Assembly: GCF_002854065.1 (NCBI RefSeq)
Contig: NZ_CP024147.1
Strand: one strand, 5' to 3'
Length of the DNA stretch: 64,000 nt
Source of the DNA: Escherichia coli
Lineage (GTDB): Bacteria > Pseudomonadota > Gammaproteobacteria > Enterobacterales > Enterobacteriaceae
Shown: positions 5,683-36,497 of the stretch, piece by piece
Position numbering within the stretch: the stretch's first letter is position 1
Layout of the letters: each line of letters begins with the position of its first letter
Notes under the pieces: model-generated
Told to the model about the DNA's origin: nothing
The model's database searches: none
Seen by the model: the letters and a program-made list of their open reading frames with translations, nothing else
Position numbers and translations under genes: made by a program

Positions 5683-6795
5683 ATGACCGCCTTAAATAAA
5701 AAATGGCTTTCGGGTCTGGTTGCGGGTGCTCTGATGGCCGTCTCTGTCGGCACGCTCGCGGCTGAACAAAAAACACTCCACATTTATAACTGGTCTGATT
5801 ATATCGCCCCCGACACGGTGGCTAACTTTGAAAAAGAAACCGGTATTAAAGTCGTCTACGATGTTTTCGACTCTAACGAAGTACTGGAAGGCAAATTAAT
5901 GGCCGGGAGCACCGGCTTTGACCTGGTGGTGCCGTCAGCAAGCTTTCTTGAACGCCAGCTGACAGCGGGAGTTTTCCAGCCGCTGGATAAAAGCAAATTG
6001 CCGGAGTGGAAGAATCTCGACCCGGAACTGCTGAAGTTGGTCGCCAAACACGATCCCGACAATAAATTTGCTATGCCCTATATGTGGGCGACGACCGGGA
6101 TTGGCTATAACGTCGATAAAGTCAAAGCGGTGCTGGGCGAAAACGCGCCCGTCGATAGCTGGGACTTGATCCTCAAGCCTGAAAATCTGGAAAAACTGAA
6201 AAGCTGCGGTGTATCTTTCCTCGATGCGCCAGAAGAAGTTTTTGCTACCGTGCTGAATTATCTCGGCAAAGATCCCAACAGCACTAAAGCGGATGATTAC
6301 ACCGGACCGGCTACCGATCTGCTGTTAAAGCTGCGCCCGAACATTCGTTATTTCCATTCATCTCAATACATTAACGACCTGGCAAACGGCGATATTTGCG
6401 TCGCTATCGGCTGGGCAGGTGATGTCTGGCAGGCGTCAAACCGCGCGAAGGAAGCGAAGAATGGCGTGAATGTCTCGTTCTCGATTCCAAAAGAAGGGGC
6501 GATGGCGTTCTTTGATGTATTCGCCATGCCTGCGGATGCCAAAAATAAAGACGAAGCCTATCAGTTCCTGAATTACCTGCTGCGTCCTGATGTGGTGGCA
6601 CATATCTCTGACCATGTGTTCTATGCTAACGCCAATAAAGCAGCCACGCCGCTGGTGAGTGCGGAAGTCCGTGATAACCCGGGTATTTATCCGCCTGCGG
6701 ATGTCCGCGCGAAGTTGTTCACTCTGAAAGTACAGGATCCGAAAATCGACCGTGTGCGCACCCGCGCGTGGACCAAAGTGAAGAGCGGAAAATAA
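5683..6795 (+). CDS. potF: Putrescine-binding periplasmic protein PotF (370 aa)
   Basis: Signal peptide MTALNKKWLSGLVAGALMAVSVGTLAA; ORF-track N-terminal extension rejected. Confidence 0.9.
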   Translation: MTALNKKWLSGLVAGALMAVSVGTLAAEQKTLHIYNWSDYIAPDTVANFEKETGIKVVYDVFDSNEVLEGKLMAGSTGFDLVVPSASFLERQLTAGVFQPLDKSKLPEWKNLDPELLKLVAKHDPDNKFAMPYMWATTGIGYNVDKVKAVLGENAPVDSWDLILKPENLEKLKSCGVSFLDAPEEVFATVLNYLGKDPNSTKADDYTGPATDLLLKLRPNIRYFHSSQYINDLANGDICVAIGWAGDVWQASNRAKEAKNGVNVSFSIPKEGAMAFFDVFAMPADAKNKDEAYQFLNYLLRPDVVAHISDHVFYANANKAATPLVSAEVRDNPGIYPPADVRAKLFTLKVQDPKIDRVRTRAWTKVKSGK

Positions 6796-10416: not shown

Positions 10417-11544
10417 ATGCAGTGCGCACTTTACGACGCGGGTCGCTGTCGTTCCTGTCAGTGGATAACGCAGCCGATTCCAGAGCAACTCTCCGCTAAA
10501 ACCGCCGATCTTAAAAATCTGCTCGCCGATTTTCCGGTTGAGGAATGGTGCGCGCCGGTGTCAGGCCCAGAACAAGGGTTTCGTAATAAAGCCAAAATGG
10601 TGGTGAGTGGTAGCGTTGAAAAACCCCTGCTCGGTATGCTGCATCGCGACGGCACACCGGAAGACCTTTGTGACTGCCCGCTTTATCCTGCCTCATTTGC
10701 GCCCGTTTTTGCGGCGCTAAAACCGTTTATCGCCCGAGCGGGGTTAACGCCCTACAACGTGGCGCGTAAGCGTGGCGAACTGAAATACATTCTGCTGACC
10801 GAAAGCCAGAGCGATGGCGGCATGATGCTGCGCTTTGTACTGCGTTCTGATACCAAGCTGGCGCAACTGCGTAAGGCGCTGCCGTGGTTACACGAACAAC
10901 TACCGCAGCTGAAAGTTATTACCGTCAATATTCAGCCGGTACATATGGCGATTATGGAAGGGGAGACGGAGATCTACCTGACCGAACAACAGGCGCTGGC
11001 AGAGCGTTTTAACGATGTGCCGCTGTGGATCCGTCCGCAAAGTTTCTTCCAGACTAATCCGGCGGTCGCCAGCCAGCTGTACGCTACCGCGCGCGACTGG
11101 GTACGACAGCTGCCGGTTAAACATATGTGGGATCTGTTCTGCGGTGTGGGGGGCTTTGGTTTACACTGCGCGACGCCTGACATGCAGTTAACCGGGATCG
11201 AAATTGCGCCAGAGGCCATTGCCTGTGCAAAGCAGTCAGCTGCTGAACTGGGCTTAACGCGTTTGCAATTTCAGGCGCTGGACTCCACTCAGTTTGCCAC
11301 CGCTCAGGGGGAGGTGCCGGAGCTGGTGCTGGTTAACCCGCCGCGCCGCGGCATTGGTAAACCGCTGTGTGATTATCTCTCAACGATGGCACCGCGTTTT
11401 ATCATCTACTCCAGCTGTAACGCCCAAACTATGGCGAAAGATATCCGAGAACTGCCTGGTTATCGCATTGAACGGGTGCAGCTTTTCGATATGTTCCCTC
11501 ACACCGCGCATTATGAAGTGTTGACGCTGCTGGTAAAAATGTAA
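10417..11544 (+). CDS. rlmC: 23S rRNA m5U747 methyltransferase RlmC (375 aa)
   Basis: N-terminal Cys cluster (CRSCQW...C), SAM-methyltransferase motifs, 375 aa. Confidence 0.9.
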
Positions 11545-11597
11545 ATACATCATTCAAATCAATATCACCTCGGCATACATCCATCCAAAATAATAAT

Positions 11598-11633
11598 CGT
11601 GATCGATCGATTAATAATAACCGATCGATCACG
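11598..11633. promoter_or_regulatory. Perfect inverted repeat cgtgatcgatcg-N12-cgatcgatcacg with four GATC sites, upstream of the PTS EIIC gene
   Basis: 12-bp perfectly complementary arms read directly from the sequence, AT-rich 12-bp spacer, about 210 bp upstream of the EIIC start. Confidence 0.3.
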
Positions 11634-11841
11634 GTTATATATTGCTCTATTTTTGCAAATCAAATCACAAATAATCAAATAAGATCTTTAATTGAACTGT
11701 TTTGATTACTACAGTGCACTTACCGAATACATACAGAGGCATTGCTTAGCGAAACACAAAATTTCCTGAGACATTATTAACGTCAGCAGAAGGTTCATGC
11801 ATTGACAACGGAAATGTACGCTTATGGAGGGCGTTCCGACG

Positions 11842-13944
11842 ATGTTTGCCAAATTCATAGATGTTATTCAAACGTTTTTAACTGAACCGGCAATTTTAAT
11901 TGGTTTGCTGGTGGGTATTGGTTATGCCCTTGATAAGAAATCGCCAATAAAAATTATTACCGGCATGGTCAGCGCCATGGTGGGATTAATGATGGTGTTA
12001 TTTGGTGGTTTCCAGTTTTCCGCAACATTTAAACCGGTAGCAGAAGCCGGGTGATGCTGCCAACTTACTGATTTAGTGTATGATGGTGTTTTTGAGGTGC
12101 TCCAGTGGCTTCTGTTTCTATCAGCTGTCCCTCCTGTTCAGCTACTGACGGGGTGGTGCGTAACGGCAAAAGCACTGCCGGACATCAGCGCTATCTCTGC
12201 TCTCACTGCCGTAAAACATGGCAACTGCAGTTCACTTACACCGCTTCTCAACCCGGTACGCACCAGAAAATCATTGATATGGCCATGAATGGCGTTGGAT
12301 GCCGGGCAACCGCCCGCATTATGGGCGTTGGCCTCAACACGATTTTCCGCCATTTAAAAAACTCAGGCCGCAGTCGGTAACCTCGCGCATACAGCCGGGC
12401 AGTGACGTCATCGTCTGCGCGGAAATGGACGAACAGTGGGGATACGTCGGGGCTAAATCGCGCCAGCGCTGGCTGTTTTACGCGTATGACAGGCTCCGGA
12501 AGACGGTTGTTGCGCACGTATTCGGTGAACGCACTATGGCGACGCTGGGGCGTCTTATGAGCCTGCTGTCACCCTTTGACGTGGTGATATGGATGACGGA
12601 TGGCTGGCCGCTGTATGAATCCCGCCTGAAGGGAAAGCTGCACGTAATCAGCAAGCGATATACGCAGCGAATTGAGCGGCATAACCTGAATCTGAGGCAG
12701 CACCTGGCACGGCTGGGACGGAAGTCGCTGTCGTTCTCAAAATCGGTGGAGCTGCATGACAAAGTCATCGGGCATTATCTGAACATAAAACACTATCAAT
12801 AAGTTGGAGTCATTACCCAGAAGCCGTAAGTAAAGCCTATGGTGTTCACGGATATTTAATGGATTCCTACGCAATGAAAGCGGCAACGCAAATTGCATTG
12901 GGGGATAATTTTGGTTATGTCGGGTATGTATTTGTACTGGCGTTTTTTACCAACCTGCTGCTGGTATTATTTGGTCGGTATACTGGTGCCAAAGGGATAT
13001 TTTTGACAGGGAATACCGGTGTTTCACATTCTCAGGCGGTATTATGGTTGATTGTCTTTTGGCTGGGTTTTAGCTGGACTACATCCATTATTATTGCCGG
13101 AATATTAACGGGTGTATTCTGGGCGTTCTTCACCACGCTCATTGTTAAGCCCATTGCCAAAGTTACCAAAGATGCCGGTTTTACCATTGCTCATAACCAG
13201 ATGTTGGGATTGTGGTTTTTCTCCAAATTCGCCCATAAATTTGGTGACCCTGAAAAGCACGATGCTGAAAACCTGAAACTTCCCGGGTGGCTGGCGATTT
13301 TTAACCATAACGTAACGGCTATCGCCATTGTGATGACGCTGTTTGTCGGTGGTTTCTTGCTATCAACGGGTATCGATAATGTCCAGTTAATGGCGAAAGG
13401 CAAGCCCTGGTACATCTATATCATCAACCTTGGCTTACAGTTCTCCATGTATATGGTCATTCTGCTGCAGGGTGTGCGCATGATGGTGGGCGAAATTAAC
13501 GGTTCGTTTAAAGGCTGGCAAGATCGCTTTATTCCTAACGCTATTCCTGCTGTCGATGTTGCAGCGCTGTTACCTTTTTCACCCAATGCCACAACGTTAG
13601 GCTTCGTCTTCTGTACTTTTGGCACCATTTTTTCGATGGGGATCTTATTACTGGTTCACAGCCCAATTATGGTATTGCCTGGCTTTGTACCTCTGTTTTT
13701 CTCTGGCGGTCCAATTGGCGTATTAGCAAACCGCATGGGCGGATACCGTTCCGTAATTATCTGTACGTTCTTGCTGGGTATTATTCAGACCTTTGGTACG
13801 GTGTGGGCTATTCCGTTAACCGGGCTTGCTGAAAATGGCGTCGGCTGGACAGGAATATTTGACTGGGCAACCGTATGGCCTGCTATTTGTGAAGTTCTGA
13901 AATTTATCGCTGCAACATTCCATCTTGGTCCTTACGCGGGTTAA
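11842..13944 (+). pseudogene. PTS ascorbate-family (UlaA/SgaT-like) EIIC, split by an IS1 insertion
   Basis: ORFs 11824..12054 and 12859..13944 both resemble UlaA; removing IS1 plus one TSD copy (777 bp) restores one in-frame ORF of about 441 aa; start codon 11842 vs 11824 uncertain. Confidence 0.8.
12050..12817 (+). mobile_element. insAB: IS1 copy 1 (768 bp) with 9-bp target-site duplication CAGAAGCCG
   Basis: Terminal inverted repeats ggtgatgctgccaacttactgat / ...aagttggagtcattacc; insA 12105..12380 and insB 12299..12802; identical 9 bp at 12041..12049 and 12818..12826. Confidence 0.95.
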
Positions 13945-13965
13945 TTAAATATTAAGGGTTTAAAA

Positions 13966-14286
13966 ATGAAAGATACAATTAATATTCTGTTTGTCTGTGG
14001 TTACGGTGTAGGCAGTAGCGTTATGTTACAAACGGTCGTTAAAAAAGCGCTGACCAAATATGATTTCAAAGTTGAAATGGAACATACCGCCGCAGGTGAA
14101 GTCGGCGGATTTACCGACTGGGCGGATATTTTTGCTATTTCCAAAAAATTACTCGATGTGGTTAGTCTTGACCCGAAACAAGGGCAATATCTGATCCCGA
14201 TAGAGAATATTATGGACGGTGAAACTATTGGTCAGCAAATTTATGAAGTGGTTCAGCAACATTATCCGCATTTAATTAATCAATAA
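13966..14286 (+). CDS. PTS ascorbate-family EIIB component (UlaB/SgaB-like, 106 aa)
   Basis: NILFVCGYGVGSS motif typical of the EIIB phosphorylation-site cysteine region; immediately downstream of the EIIC gene. Confidence 0.8.
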   Translation: MKDTINILFVCGYGVGSSVMLQTVVKKALTKYDFKVEMEHTAAGEVGGFTDWADIFAISKKLLDVVSLDPKQGQYLIPIENIMDGETIGQQIYEVVQQHYPHLINQ

Positions 14287-14297
14287 GGTAGGGCGTA

Positions 14298-16556
14298 ATG
14301 AGAGCGATTATTCTGCTGTTCGATAGTCTGAATAAACGGGTAATGACTCCAACTTATTGATAGTGTTTTATGTTCAGATAATGCCCGATGACTTTGTCAT
14401 GCAGCTCCACCGATTTTGAGAACGACAGCGACTTCCGTCCCAGCCGTGCCAGGTGCTGCCTCAGATTCAGGTTATGCCGCTCAATTCGCTGCGTATATCG
14501 CTTGCTGATTACGTGCAGCTTTCCCTTCAGGCGGGATTCATACAGCGGCCAGCCATCCGTCATCCATATCACCACGTCAAAGGGTGACAGCAGGCTCATA
14601 AGACGCCCCAGCGTCGCCATAGTGCGTTCACCGAATACGTGCGCAACAACCGTCTTCCGGAGCCTGTCATACGCGTAAAACAGCCAGCGCTGGCGCGATT
14701 TAGCCCCGACGTATCCCCACTGTTCGTCCATTTCCGCGCAGACGATGACGTCACTGCCCGGCTGTATGCGCGAGGTTACCGACTGCGGCCTGAGTTTTTT
14801 AAATGGCGGAAAATCGTGTTGAGGCCAACGCCCATAATGCGGGCGGTTGCCCGGCATCCAACGCCATTCATGGCCATATCAATGATTTTCTGGTGCGTAC
14901 CGGGTTGAGAAGCGGTGTAAGTGAACTGCAGTTGCCATGTTTTACGGCAGTGAGAGCAGAGATAGCGCTGATGTCCGGCAGTGCTTTTGCCGTTACGCAC
15001 CACCCCGTCAGTAGCTGAACAGGAGGGACAGCTGATAGAAACAGAAGCCACTGGAGCACCTCAAAAACACCATCATACACTAAATCAGTAAGTTGGCAGC
15101 ATCACCGAATAAACGTTATCTGCCACCTTATGGCGATGCGTTAACCAAAGCGCCTAATTTCCAACGTCTGGCGGCTCATGCCGCCACCTTTGAAAACAGT
15201 TACGTCGGCAGTATGCCGTGTATGCCTGCCCGGCGGGAGTTGCATACCGGGCGATGTAACTTCCTGCATCGGGAGTGGGGGCCGTTAGAACCGTTTGACG
15301 ATTCCATGCCGGAGCTGCTTAAAAAGGCGGGGATCTATACCCACCTGATAAGCGATCATTTGCATTACTGGGAAGATGGCGGCGGGAATTATCATAATCG
15401 CTACAGTTCGTGGGAGATTGTGCGCGGACAGAAAGGCGATCACTGGCATGCAAGCGTTGCGCAACCGCCTATTCCCGAGGTGCTACGGGTGCCGCAAAAG
15501 CAGACCGGTGGCGGTGTTTCTGGTCTGTGGCGCCATGACTGGGCAAACCGGGAATATATTCAGCAGGAAGCGGATTTTCCACAAACTAAAGTGTTTGATG
15601 CAGGCTGTGCCTTTATCCACAAAAATCACGCGGAAGATAACTGGTTATTGCAGGTCGAAACGTTTGATCCGCACGAGCCGTTTCACACAACGGAAGAGTA
15701 TCTTTCCTTGTATGAAGATAACTGGGATGGACCGCATTATGACTGGCCGCGTGGCCGGGTGCAGGAAAGCGACGAGGCCGTGGAGCACATCCGTTGCCGG
15801 TATCGTTCGCTGGTGTCGATGTGCGATCGCAACCTGGGGCGCATTCTCGACCTGATGGATGAGCACGATCTGTGGCGAGATACCATGCTGATTGTCGGCA
15901 CTGACCACGGCTTTTTACTCGGTGAGCATGGCTGGTGGGCGAAAAACCAGATGCCTTATTACAACGAAGTTGCCAATAATCCGTTGTTTATCTGGGACCC
16001 GCGCAGTGGTGTAAAAGGAGAGCGGCGACAGGCACTGGTACAAATGATCGACTGGGCGCCAACGTTGTATGACTTTTTTCAACAGCCAGTGCCGCCCGAT
16101 GTGCAGGGGCAACCGCTGGCGAAAACGGTCAGTCACGATGAACCAGTACGCAGCTCGGCGATGTTTGGTGTCTTCAGTGGTCATGTTAACGTAACTGATG
16201 GGCGTTTTGTCTATATGCGTGCAGCGCTGCCGGGGCGTGAGGATGATATTGCCAACTACACGTTGATGTCCTGCAAAATGAACAGCCGCTATCCGGTGGA
16301 TGAGATGCGGGCTTTATCGCTGGCCCCACCGTTTCGTTTTACCAAAGGGTTACAGGTATTACGCATCCCGGCACAGGAAAAATATAAGGGGTTGAATCAG
16401 TTTGGTCATTTGCTGTTTGAGCTGCAAAACGATCCGCAGCAGCTACATCCGATTCATGATGATGTGATCGAGTCCCGGATGATCGCGTTGCTGATTCAGT
16501 TGATGAAAGATAATGATGCGCCGCCAGAGCAGTTTCAGCGCCTGGGATTAGCGTAG
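14298..16556 (+). pseudogene. Cys-type (formylglycine-dependent) sulfatase, split near its 5' end by an IS1 insertion
   Basis: ATG at 14298 encodes MRAIILLFDSLNKR, then IS1, then the ORF resumes in frame (YLPPYGDA...); sulfatase signature C-M-P-A-R-x4-T-G present; no signal peptide. Confidence 0.8.
14339..15106 (-). mobile_element. insAB: IS1 copy 2 (768 bp, reverse orientation) with 9-bp target-site duplication GAATAAACG
   Basis: insB 14354..14857 and insA 14776..15051 on the minus strand; identical 9 bp at 14330..14338 and 15107..15115. Confidence 0.95.
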
Positions 16557-16606
16557 AGAAGTGATTTTGCCGGAGTGGGTGTTCGCCCACTCCGGCAAAT
16601 GAATAA

Positions 16607-17338
16607 TTATTGCGGGAACCACTGATCGCTGATTTGTTGATATGTACCGTCAGCTTTAATTGCTGCCAGCGCGTTATTCAGTTTTTCCAGCAGAGCTTTG
16701 TTATCCGGACGTACAGCGATACCCAGACCGGTGCCAAAGTATTGCGGATCGGTCACTTTTTCAGTAGCAACGCCCAGTTGCGGATTGGTTTTCAGCCATT
16801 CATTAACCACCGCAGTGTCACCAAATACGCCATCAATACGGCCATTTTTCAGATCGATAAAGGCATTTTGATAACTGTCATAGGAGACCGTTTTCACTTC
16901 CGGGTGCTGATCCTGAATATATTTCTGGTGCGTAGTACCGTTTTCCATCCCAATGCGTTTGCCTTTCAGGTCGGCAAACGTTTTGTAGGTATCTTTTTTG
17001 GCAATCACGACGGCTGAGTTTTCGTAATAGGGCGTGGTGAACGATACCTGCTTGCTACGATCTGGTGTGATATCCATACCGGAGATTACGGCGTCATATT
17101 TCCTGAATTTCAGTGACGGGATCAGGCTGTCGAAAGCGTGATTAGTAAAAGTACATTCTGCCTGCATTTGTTTGCACAAGGCTTTTGCCAGGTCGATATC
17201 AAAGCCGACAATCTCATTATTAGCACCTATAGATTCAAAGGGTGGATAGGTGGCTGAAACGCCAAAATTGATTTTCTCTGCGGCAGAAGCACCGAAAGTA
17301 AAGGAAGCAAGTAATGCGGCAAGAACTAACTTTTTCAT
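16607..17338 (-). CDS. artJ: Arginine-binding periplasmic protein ArtJ (243 aa)
   Basis: Signal peptide MKKLVLAALLASFTFGASA; paralogous to artI in this window; start trimmed from the ORF track. Confidence 0.9.
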   Translation of the reverse strand: MKKLVLAALLASFTFGASAAEKINFGVSATYPPFESIGANNEIVGFDIDLAKALCKQMQAECTFTNHAFDSLIPSLKFRKYDAVISGMDITPDRSKQVSFTTPYYENSAVVIAKKDTYKTFADLKGKRIGMENGTTHQKYIQDQHPEVKTVSYDSYQNAFIDLKNGRIDGVFGDTAVVNEWLKTNPQLGVATEKVTDPQYFGTGLGIAVRPDNKALLEKLNNALAAIKADGTYQQISDQWFPQ

Positions 17339-17487: not shown

Positions 17488-17511
17488 TTTATTATAAGAA
17501 TTTATGCACTA

Positions 17512-17655
<144 letters not shown>

Positions 17656-17666
17656 ACGCAGCTACA

Positions 17667-22661: not shown

Positions 22662-23429
22662 GGTGATGCTGCCAACTTACTGATTTAGTGTATGATGGTG
22701 TTTTTGAGGTGCTCCAGTGGCTTCTGTTTCTATCAGCTGTCCCTCCTGTTCAGCTACTGACGGGGTGGTGCGTAACGGCAAAAGCACTGCCGGACATCAG
22801 CGCTATCTCTGCTCTCACTGCCGTAAAACATGGCAACTGCAGTTCACTTACACCGCTTCTCAACCCGGTACGCACCAGAAAATCATTGATATGGCCATGA
22901 ATGGCGTTGGATGCCGGGCAACCGCCCGCATTATGGGCGTTGGCCTCAACACGATTTTCCGCCATTTAAAAAACTCAGGCCGCAGTCGGTAACCTCGCGC
23001 ATACAGCCGGGCAGTGACGTCATCGTCTGCGCGGAAATGGACGAACAGTGGGGATACGTCGGGGCTAAATCGCGCCAGCGCTGGCTGTTTTACGCGTATG
23101 ACAGGCTCCGGAAGACGGTTGTTGCGCACGTATTCGGTGAACGCACTATGGCGACGCTGGGGCGTCTTATGAGCCTGCTGTCACCCTTTGACGTGGTGAT
23201 ATGGATGACGGATGGCTGGCCGCTGTATGAATCCCGCCTGAAGGGAAAGCTGTACGTAATCAGCAAGCGATATACGCAGCGAATTGAGCGGCATAACCTG
23301 AATCTGAGGCAGCACCTGGCACGGCTGGGACGGAAGTCGCTGTCGTTCTCAAAATCGGTGGAGCTGCATGACAAAGTCATCGGGCATTATCTGAACATAA
23401 AACACTATCAATAAGTTGGAGTCATTACC
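22662..23429 (+). mobile_element. insAB: IS1 copy 3 (768 bp) without a target-site duplication
   Basis: Flanks are gaaactgcg (left) and agtaatctc (right); insA 22717..22992, insB 22911..23414; insB has an H-to-Y change relative to copies 1 and 2. Confidence 0.95.
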
Positions 23430-35024: not shown

Positions 35025-36497
35025 TTAATTACGTTTTTCCAGCAGGGTCCGGTAAATCAGACCACCGATAATGCCGCCGACAATTGGCACCACCCAGAAG
35101 AACCACAGTTGTTCTAATGCCCAGCCGCCCTGGAAGATGGCAACCGCGGTGCTGCGCGCCGGGTTAACAGAAGTGTTAGTCACCGGAATACTGATTAAGT
35201 GAATCAGGGTTAAGGCCAGACCAATAGCGATCGGCGCAAAACCTGCCGGAGCGAATTTGTCGGTTGCGCCGTGGATCACCAACAGGAAACCTGCACTCAA
35301 TACCAGTTCAACTACCAGCGCGGAAAGCATGGAATAACCGCCTGGTGAATGCTCGCCATAACCGTTAGGGTGATGCTGCCAACTTACTGATTTAGTGTAT
35401 GATGGTGTTTTTGAGGTGCTCCAGTGGCTTCTGTTTCTATCAGCTGTCCCTCCTGTTCAGCTACTGACGGGGTGGTGCGTAACGGCAAAAGCACTGCCGG
35501 ACATCAGCGCTATCTCTGCTCTCACTGCCGTAAAACATGGCAACTGCAGTTCACTTACACCGCTTCTCAACCCGGTACGCACCAGAAAATCATTGATATG
35601 GCCATGAATGGCGTTGGATGCCGGGCAACCGCCCGCATTATGGGCGTTGGCCTCAACACGATTTTCCGCCATTTAAAAAACTCAGGCCGCAGTCGGTAAC
35701 CTCGCGCATACAGCCGGGCAGTGACGTCATCGTCTGCGCGGAAATGGACGAACAGTGGGGATACGTCGGGGCTAAATCGAGCCAGCGCTGGCTGTTTTAC
35801 GCGTATGACAGGCTCCGGAAGACGGTTGTTGCGCACGTATTCGGTGAACGCACTATGGCGACGCTGGGGCGTCTTATGAGCCTGCTGTCACCCTTTGACG
35901 TGGTGATATGGATGACGGATGGCTGGCCGCTGTATGAATCCCGCCTGAAGGGAAAGCTGCACGTAATCAGCAAGCGATATACGCAGCGAATTGAGCGGCA
36001 TAACCTGAATCTGAGGCAGCACCTGGCACGGCTGGGACGGAAGTCGCTGTCGTTCTCAAAATCGGTGGAGCTGCATGACAAAGTCATCGGGCATTATCTG
36101 AACATAAAACACTATCAATAAGTTGGAGTCATTACCAACCGTTAGAAGCAAAACCGCTGGCTGCCGCGTCAAAACCCGTTTTACCACTGGCAATTAAATA
36201 CAGCAGCGCCGCTGCAACAATACCGCCGACAACCTGGGCAATTACGTAGCCAACGACTTCTTTTGCCGGAAAACGTCCGCCAGCCCATAAACCAATAGTG
36301 ACCGCCGGGTTAAAATGACCACCAGAAATATGACCAACAGCGAAGGCCATCGTCAGAACGGTCAAACCGAATGCCAGCGCCACGCCGGCAAAACCAATGC
36401 CTAATTCCGGGAAGCCTGCGGCCAGTACAGCACTACCACAGCCACCAAAAACAAGCCAGAAAGTACCAAAACATTCAGCTGCTAATTTTCTGAACAT
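35025..36497 (-). pseudogene. aqpZ: Aquaporin Z, interrupted by an IS1 insertion
   Basis: N-terminal part 36137..36497 ([13 protein letters not shown]... with NPA) and C-terminal part 35025..35368 (...second NPA...RTLLEKRN) on the minus strand, separated by IS1. Confidence 0.9.
35369..36136 (+). mobile_element. insAB: IS1 copy 4 (768 bp) with 9-bp target-site duplication AACCGTTAG
   Basis: Identical 9 bp at 35360..35368 and 36137..36145; insA 35424..35699, insB 35618..36121 with an R-to-S change. Confidence 0.95.

Follow-up and report, generated by a model that had tools for sequence, protein, structure and literature searches.

Layout of the rlmC-artJ segment

Between the core genes rlmC and artJ, Escherichia coli contig NZ_CP024147.1 carries an operon for a permease (EIIC) and an EIIB component of the phosphotransferase system (PTS), followed by a sulfatase. 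The first and third genes are each split by a copy of the insertion sequence IS1. We analyzed this operon within a 64,000-nt stretch of the contig, hereafter referred to as the window, and compared it with related loci in other genomes. The features of the segment and its flanks are collected in Table 1. In K-12, the rlmC-artJ spacer measures 198 bp and holds only repetitive extragenic palindromic (REP) elements, consistent with an initial annotation of the window that placed no genes there in K-12. Homology between the two genomes breaks within the last rlmC codon, which itself differs (...VKM* in the window versus ...VKQ* in K-12), placing the boundary of the indel at the rlmC 3′ end. The segment contains neither an EIIA gene nor a maturase gene, also as annotated initially.

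Table 1. Features of the rlmC-artJ segment, in window coordinates
Feature	Position	Strand	Remarks
rlmC	10417-11544	+	left flanking core gene
AT-rich palindrome	11593-11638		just 3′ of rlmC; four GATC sites
Promoter/operator core	11648-11716	+	predicted; conserved; upstream of the EIIC gene
EIIC gene, 5′ fragment	11824-12049	+	codons 1-75 and first base of codon 76
IS1 copy 1	12050-12817	+	768 bp; insA/insB′ open reading frames; splits the EIIC gene
Target-site duplication CAGAAGCCG	left 12041-12049, right 12818-12826	direct	9 bp; around IS1 copy 1
EIIC gene, 3′ part	12827-13944	+	in frame with the 5′ fragment after rebuilding; 447 aa in total
EIIB gene	13966-14286	+	106 aa; intact in the window
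Sulfatase gene, 5′ fragment	14298-14338	+	first 13 codons and two bases of codon 14
IS1 copy 2	14339-15106	-	768 bp; orientation opposite to copy 1; splits the sulfatase gene
Target-site duplication GAATAAACG	left 14330-14338, right 15107-15115	direct	9 bp; around IS1 copy 2
Sulfatase gene, 3′ part	15116-16556	+	493 aa in total when rebuilt
GC-rich hairpin (TTTGCCGGAGTGGG...CCCACTCCGGCAAA)	16566-16599		between the convergent sulfatase and artJ genes; read directly
artJ	16607-17338	-	right flanking core gene

The two IS1 copies in the operon are 100% identical to each other in pairwise comparison within the window. Each encodes open reading frames (ORFs) of 91 and 167 aa, in keeping with IS1 as an element with terminal inverted repeats and insA/insB′ ORFs. 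Because each copy is flanked by its own matching direct duplication, the two events are independent simple insertions. We considered an inversion between the opposite-facing copies and ruled it out, as each copy has its own duplications and collinearity with intact alleles is retained after rebuilding; the 1.5-kb stretch between the copies is unchanged in orientation.

Deleting each IS1 together with one copy of its duplication in silico restored three uninterrupted full-length ORFs, for EIIC, EIIB and the sulfatase, with the breakpoints at codon 76 of the EIIC gene and codon 14 of the sulfatase gene. E. coli CUWW06 has an intact copy, with which the rebuilt 3,474-nt segment shares 99.9% identity, so the IS1 insertions are the sole lesions of the segment. 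The operon is dead in the NZ_CP024147.1 strain, and the initial description of two genes knocked out by separate, clean IS1 insertions holds. The IS1/EIIC junction was not found in any complete E. coli genome of our collection, and the disruption is lineage-specific, within an IS1-rich genome. In their 768-bp length, their insA/insB′ ORFs and their 9-bp duplications, the operon copies resemble the IS1 of E. coli and Shigella, with nothing unusual about them. For this strain itself, the finding amounts to ordinary genome decay, the operon being another casualty of IS1 expansion. Two more copies lie at 22662-23429 and 35369-36136, both 99.9% identical to the operon copies; four IS1 in 64 kb is a density typical of Shigella-like genome decay.

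Inverted repeats lie toward both ends of the segment. The near-perfect palindrome 3′ of rlmC has 21-bp arms, its four GATC sequences being Dam sites. It is kept with compensating changes in Salmonella (locus L004, ~6064-6106), is absent from the Leclercia, Silvania and Yokenella loci, and probably forms a terminator-like hairpin, although it may instead act as a protein site or a methylation-sensitive element. The GC-rich hairpin at the other end is probably a bidirectional terminator; it has no T-run and hence was not flagged by the terminator scan. Beyond artJ, the artJ-artM spacer contains two REP-like repeats (ATGTAGGCCGGATAAGGCG...) at 17511-17554 and 17614-17657, 89% identical to each other. 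The same type of element fills the K-12 rlmC-artJ spacer, where the operon is missing.

Distribution and conserved gene order

The intact three-gene segment occurs in 566 of 5,426 complete E. coli genomes, including O157:H7, O55:H7 and O145:H28, and is always chromosomal and always located between rlmC and artJ. Two allele classes can be distinguished, one represented by 411 genomes at a nucleotide identity of at least 99% and the other by 155 genomes at ~91%. This difference of ~9% (locus L002 versus L001) far exceeds what is typical of core genes within the species. Among the divergent class are urinary isolates; this class either reflects an ancient polymorphism or was imported from another Escherichia lineage.

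The same site is occupied in three Salmonella enterica subspecies, in other Escherichia species and in Yokenella. Compared with Salmonella, protein identity is 95% for EIIC, 84% for EIIB and 86% for the sulfatase, and 88%, 91% and 79% for the flanking RlmC, ArtJ and YbjO. Given the shared site and a divergence similar to that of the flanking core genes, the operon was probably present in the Escherichia-Salmonella ancestor and lost in most E. coli, including K-12. On the same two observations we rejected a recently acquired genomic islet. Comparing rlmC-artJ synteny across genomes, as the initial annotation had proposed, thus leaves its "islet" standing as a real segment missing from K-12, though probably an ancestral rather than an acquired one.

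The EIIC gene of Salmonella LT2 has the locus tag STM0884 and the label ulaA; gene order suggests that EIIB and the sulfatase would be encoded by STM0885 and STM0886. In Leclercia sp. 29361 (locus L014, 4434-7839), the cassette lies at a chromosomal site other than that in Escherichia and Salmonella, adjoining an anaerobic sulfatase maturase (anSME), a gene for an unknown 120-aa protein, and a periplasmic-type arylsulfotransferase (ASST, PF05935), which together make up a small neighborhood of sulfate-ester genes.

We surveyed sulfatase relatives in one genome per species, which gave 62 loci, 41 of them at 60% or more sequence identity. Conservation of gene order had been set beforehand as the test of the initial proposal that PTS uptake is linked to desulfation inside the cell. 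An EIIC gene lies directly upstream of the sulfatase gene in 34 of the 41 loci (8/8 enteric and 26/33 non-enteric), spanning Enterobacteriaceae, Firmicutes and Actinobacteria, and EIIB adjoins EIIC in all of the 34 except L039. The remainder of the 41 mostly have PTS genes elsewhere in the locus or lie on a truncated contig. In Firmicutes the typical order is DeoR-EIIC-EIIB-sulfatase-EIIA, and some proteins have an EIIA domain fused to the sulfatase C-terminus (P0044, 643 aa; P0082, 635 aa), which we regard as direct evidence that the two functions are linked.

Another, more distant sulfatase clade, at 46-57% identity and with NFLHRSWGP instead of NFLHREWGP, occurs without a PTS (loci L048-L070). 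Its 21 loci served as an internal negative control for the linkage analysis below. Hosts include Paenibacillus, Streptomyces, Microbacterium and Brachyspira, among others, and the clade is abundant in marine SAR86. In the two loci that we annotated, from Paenibacillus (L074) and Brachyspira (L075), ABC transporters of the SBP_bac_5 or NMT1 type accompany a second, shorter sulfatase, with an anSME as well in Brachyspira.

The permease and the sulfatase

EIIC matches the NCBIfam model NF009550 (PTS sugar transporter subunit IIC) over its full length, with 958 bits against a cutoff of 583, and PF03611 is recorded on its orthologs. It is ~38-39% identical to K-12 UlaA and scores 321 bits on the ascorbate-IIC equivalog NF006919, below the cutoff of 380. 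EIIB is UlaB-like, matching the UlaB and IIBC models at E values of 7e-11 and 1e-12, below the equivalog cutoffs; its phospho-cysteine loop reads VCGYGVGSS (motif ILFVCGYGVGSS, compared to ILAVCGNGQGSS in UlaB). The initial assignment of a UlaA/SgaT-family EIIC with its EIIB was correct.

Eleven UlaA residues have been reported to contact vitamin C, namely T86, Y87, H135, I136, Q139, H194, Q195, D314, I358, F362 and M410, and S59, R288 (UlaB-facing) and the elevator pivot glycines G58 and G286 are also listed (PMC6048161). In our alignment, the sulfatase-linked EIIC clade retains Y87, H194, D314, F362, G58, G286 and R288, the last three being invariant in 38/38 sequences. Throughout the clade, H135 is replaced by N, I136 by A, T or S, Q139 by A or S, Q195 by N and S59 by G, with a lone Gln at position 135 in L039. 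The window EIIC carries H135N, I136T, Q139S, Q195N and S59G, so that its vitamin-C pocket is incomplete: about half of the pocket is kept, and five residues are swapped for smaller ones. Four UlaA-like EIICs that are encoded in the same loci and not linked to a sulfatase retain H-I-K-H-Q/P.

The pocket substitutions, together with the sub-cutoff NF006919 score, indicate that EIIC is a UlaA paralog with a predicted altered specificity, not a UlaA ortholog. Judging from the pattern of retained and replaced residues, the scaffold appears to be ascorbate-like, with space for an additional substituent. In L019, L028, L039 and L047, the cassette has another UlaA-like EIIC/EIIB pair at a distance of 3-5 kb; these further EIICs are 33-37% identical to the cassette EIIC and have a pocket nearer to that of UlaA, and the genomes thus contain two ascorbate-family permeases side by side.

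The third protein belongs to the Pfam Sulfatase family (PF00884, 2e-28) and carries the formylglycine signature C49-M-P-A-R53-R-E-L-H-T-G. With the metal-ligand Asp at residue 9, a signal peptide would not fit ahead of it; the enzyme is thus predicted to be cytoplasmic, in line with the initial reading of a cytoplasmic CxPxR sulfatase. D9, C49, P51, R53, H200, D277, H278 and K290 are invariant in a 40-sequence alignment. An AlphaFold2 (AF2) model (pLDDT 87.7, pTM 0.91) has the S1 sulfatase fold. Its closest solved structures reach template-modeling (TM) scores of only 0.6-0.7 at no more than 19% identity. SpAS1/SpAS2, carbohydrate and choline sulfatases, and phosphonate monoester hydrolases (PMHs) match best. 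We dropped a substrate guess based on the nearest solved sulfatases, such as GlcNAc-6-sulfatase and choline sulfatase, as these are too distant to inform.

The active site has atypical features. The N-terminal motif is D9-S10 (window 14322-14327) rather than D-D or D-Q, the second metal Asp being replaced by Ser10. The first sulfate-binding Lys of S1 enzymes aligns to a gap or to D94, and an invariant D94-H95-L-H97-Y-W-E (window ~15355-15375) stands where canonical sulfatases have G-K-W-H. The closest comparison is with SpAS1/SpAS2, cytoplasmic dimeric enzymes of Silicibacter pomeroyi, and with PMHs: all share the fold, CxPxR, the DHG metal site, the PH.P histidine and the second Lys, and lack a signal peptide. 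In contrast to these enzymes, the operon sulfatase has D9-S10, has no aligned first Lys and is tied to a PTS, in addition to its low identity to solved structures.

Genes for a formylglycine-generating enzyme (FGE, PF03781) adjoin the cassette in two Neobacillus strains and Bacillus FJAT-50079 (L077, L025 and L039), and an anSME gene does so in at least 10 loci, including that of Leclercia (TIGR03942, 458 bits against a cutoff of 349). This adjacency supports the sulfatase as a genuine formylglycine enzyme, as judged from its relatives. E. coli is able to mature Cys-type sulfatases in its cytoplasm.

The same features bear on whether the enzyme might instead be a PMH-like formylglycine phospho- or phosphono-esterase acting on a phosphorylated ascorbate, such as ascorbate-2-phosphate, or on a diester. 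SpAS1/SpAS2 and PMHs are among its best profile-search matches, the canonical first Lys is unaligned, the N-terminal pair is D-S, and FGE/anSME adjacency would suit any formylglycine enzyme. Nevertheless, SpAS1 and SpAS2 are deposited as sulfatases, and the complete CxPxRxxxxTG signature, H200 and K290 are retained. With regard to the substrate, ascorbate-2-sulfate is a regular animal metabolite, and natural ascorbate-2-phosphate is, to our knowledge, rare. We consider an esterase of this kind quite improbable.

Links to L-ascorbate catabolism and the candidate substrate

We searched the loci for Ula genes by tblastn with the K-12 Ula proteins. Catabolic genes (ulaG, ulaD, ulaE or ulaF) lie within 10 kb in 10 of the 33 non-enteric loci versus 0/21 in the distant clade. 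In Neobacillus niacini, the genes form a single array, ulaC-EIIC-EIIB-sulfatase-ulaG (70% identity)-ulaD-ulaE-ulaF. In Bacillus sp. SD088, DeoR-EIIA-UlaG-UlaD-UlaE-UlaF-PtsI is divergent from EIIC-EIIB-sulfatase, and the cassette EIIC is the sole permease of the divergon; on the L-ascorbate-6-phosphate lactonase equivalog, which has a cutoff of 306 bits, the UlaG encoded there reaches 644 bits. Other arrangements of Ula genes with the cassette occur in Bacillus FJAT-50079, Clostridium, a metagenome-assembled Oscillospiraceae genome and Olsenella (L039, L041, L042 and L032). Sulfatase variants without a PTS neighbor genes for TctA, UlaG, UlaF, a UlaE-type TIM barrel and transketolase. The EIIAs of Firmicutes cassettes have the ascorbate IIA model as their best match. 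The enteric operon has no EIIA, regulator or catabolic enzymes of its own, and these missing parts are exactly those that the ula regulon supplies.

Escherichia, Salmonella, Leclercia, Silvania and Yokenella share a conserved core of ~70 nt upstream of the EIIC gene. Its alignment to the ulaA-proximal promoter of K-12 needs no gaps, and 35 columns are invariant in the 7 sequences compared. The pairwise score between core and ulaA promoter exceeds 300/300 dinucleotide shuffles in 4 of the 5 genera. A TTTGAWW half-site recurs in UlaR-bound K-12 regions and in the operon core, with an information content too low to count as evidence.

Gene neighborhood, the EIIC pocket and promoter homology together make L-ascorbate-2-sulfate a concrete candidate substrate. 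With the parts missing from the enteric operon, four independent lines of comparative evidence point to the L-ascorbate pathway. We hypothesize that, where intact, the operon forms a side branch of the Ula pathway for an ascorbate derivative, most probably L-ascorbate-2-sulfate, and estimate the probability of this reading at roughly 0.55. The initial annotation had suggested a sulfated sugar or sugar acid; the idea of a sulfated PTS substrate is supported, and the Ula context refines it to this compound.

According to this hypothesis, EIIC/EIIB would import an ascorbate derivative with an extra anionic group, most probably L-ascorbate-2-sulfate, and phosphorylate it at C6. The phosphoryl donor would be the ascorbate EIIA UlaC, encoded elsewhere in enterics, or, in Firmicutes, a cassette-borne or sulfatase-fused EIIA. 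The cytoplasmic sulfatase, its Cys-to-formylglycine maturation being supplied in trans in E. coli, would then strip the 2-sulfate to give L-ascorbate-6-phosphate. This product would be turned into xylulose-5-phosphate by UlaG, UlaD, UlaE and UlaF and would also relieve repression by UlaR. Expression in enterics would probably start from the ulaA-promoter homolog and hence depend on UlaR and its co-regulators. Of the evidence behind this scheme, the anatomy, the conservation, the fusions and the linkage to maturase and ula genes are shown by the sequences; the substrate, the use of UlaC and control by UlaR are deduced from them.

Compared with UlaABC and the Ula regulon (TC 4.A.7; ulaRGABCDEF), the cassette shares the related EIIC with its pocket core, the UlaB-like EIIB, the Firmicutes EIIA, the PulaA-like promoter and linkage to ulaG/D/E/F in several phyla. 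It differs in that its EIIC forms a separate paralogous clade that is always sulfatase-paired, and in that the enteric version has no EIIA, regulator or catabolic genes of its own. Mammalian arylsulfatase A cleaves L-ascorbate-2-sulfate. It would cut the same enol sulfate ester, at ascorbate O2, but it is lysosomal and of secreted type, has no transporter coupling and is only distantly homologous.

A less specific interpretation is that the operon is a general module for sulfated carbohydrates, in which a sulfated monosaccharide or sugar acid from host or diet (mucin, glycosaminoglycan or algal) enters through the PTS and the sulfatase frees the phospho-sugar for use in central metabolism. The nearest solved homologs in a single-sequence search are indeed GlcNAc-6-sulfatase and mucin-desulfating enzymes (E ~1e-22, mainly over the C-terminal half), and, apart from a DeoR regulator and an EIIA, most cassettes have no accompanying genes. 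PTS and sulfatase gene clusters are also known in streptococci: a lactose-type cluster, SPH1922-1929, listed without an assigned substrate, and Man-type clusters for sulfated glycosaminoglycan disaccharides (PMC3302838). These follow the same principle, combining a PTS with an intracellular sulfatase and a maturase, but they belong to the Lac and Man PTS families rather than the ascorbate family and have other accompanying enzymes. The EIIC of our operon is of the ascorbate family and keeps key residues of the vitamin-C pocket. The catabolic genes found nearby are ula genes, and nag, gal or uronate genes were not noticed among the annotated neighbors, for which no specific search was made. Furthermore, phosphorylation at C6 is impossible on a 6-O-sulfated hexose, and the cassette has no catabolic enzyme, so its product must join an existing pathway. 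We therefore regard a general module as unlikely.

A further possibility is sulfur scavenging, in which the operon would free inorganic sulfate from an organosulfate under sulfur limitation and not serve carbon supply. In the distant clade, the sulfatase has ABC transporters of the NMT1 and oligopeptide types, another sulfatase and an anSME as neighbors, and the Leclercia cassette lies beside an arylsulfotransferase and an anSME. However, genes for DeoR-type sugar-phosphate regulators, EIIA and Ula catabolism accompany the PTS-linked clade, and the enteric promoter resembles PulaA. Scavenging fits the distant clade better than the PTS-linked one, and for the latter it seems highly improbable as the main function. 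It is not exclusive, since released sulfate would be a by-product under any reading.

Several observations weigh against the assignment to L-ascorbate-2-sulfate. Every functional step rests on comparative genomics, and the surveyed loci are not phylogenetically independent. About two thirds of the non-enteric cassettes and all of the enteric ones have no Ula gene within 10 kb. The pocket argument comes from a residue alignment and presumes that the five replaced residues face ascorbate O2. No solved structure is close to the sulfatase, and the missing first-Lys equivalent and Ser10 mean that its chemistry could differ. The E. coli core compared pairwise with the ula intergenic region is not significant, as 45/300 shuffles reach its score; of the promoter comparisons, only the multi-genus alignment appears convincing. 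Finally, the readable literature yielded no published UlaR operator sequence, and control by UlaR is what we infer.

Metabolomics papers repeatedly list ascorbic acid 2-sulfate among the metabolites of plasma and urine. In the searchable literature, we found no paper on bacterial use of ascorbate sulfate and no functional study of the operon (locus tags STM0883-0886, Z1087-1089 and ECs0941-0943). STM0884 is mentioned in passing, under the label ulaA, for an intragenic sigma-54 site and in an expression list for a virulence regulator, and a 2011 paper records, without further comment, that Sebaldella has a sulfatase "inserted" in its ula regulon. The broader proposal, that many gut and soil bacteria including O157:H7 and Salmonella use sulfated vitamin C by combining a UlaA-paralog PTS, a new and atypical family of cytoplasmic sulfatases and borrowed ula parts, we hold tentatively, at slightly less than even odds.

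If correct, the assignment would provide a substrate and a pathway for a widely annotated, uncharacterized operon ("PTS sugar transporter IIC/IIB + sulfatase") found in ~10% of complete E. coli genomes, and a natural role for a whole sulfatase subfamily without a solved or characterized member. It would mean that a vitamin C metabolite found in circulation and urine can serve bacteria as a source of carbon, and of sulfate, and would be a rare case of a PTS passing a phospho-sulfo-ester to a cytoplasmic sulfatase.

In the PTS-less loci of Clostridium sp. MCC353 (L073, 1-9479), L026 and L030, the sulfatase (62-64% identity) follows a TctA-type transporter. This version further includes a UlaG-like lactonase, UlaF-like and UlaE-like genes, a split transketolase, a URO-D family protein and a GntR regulator.

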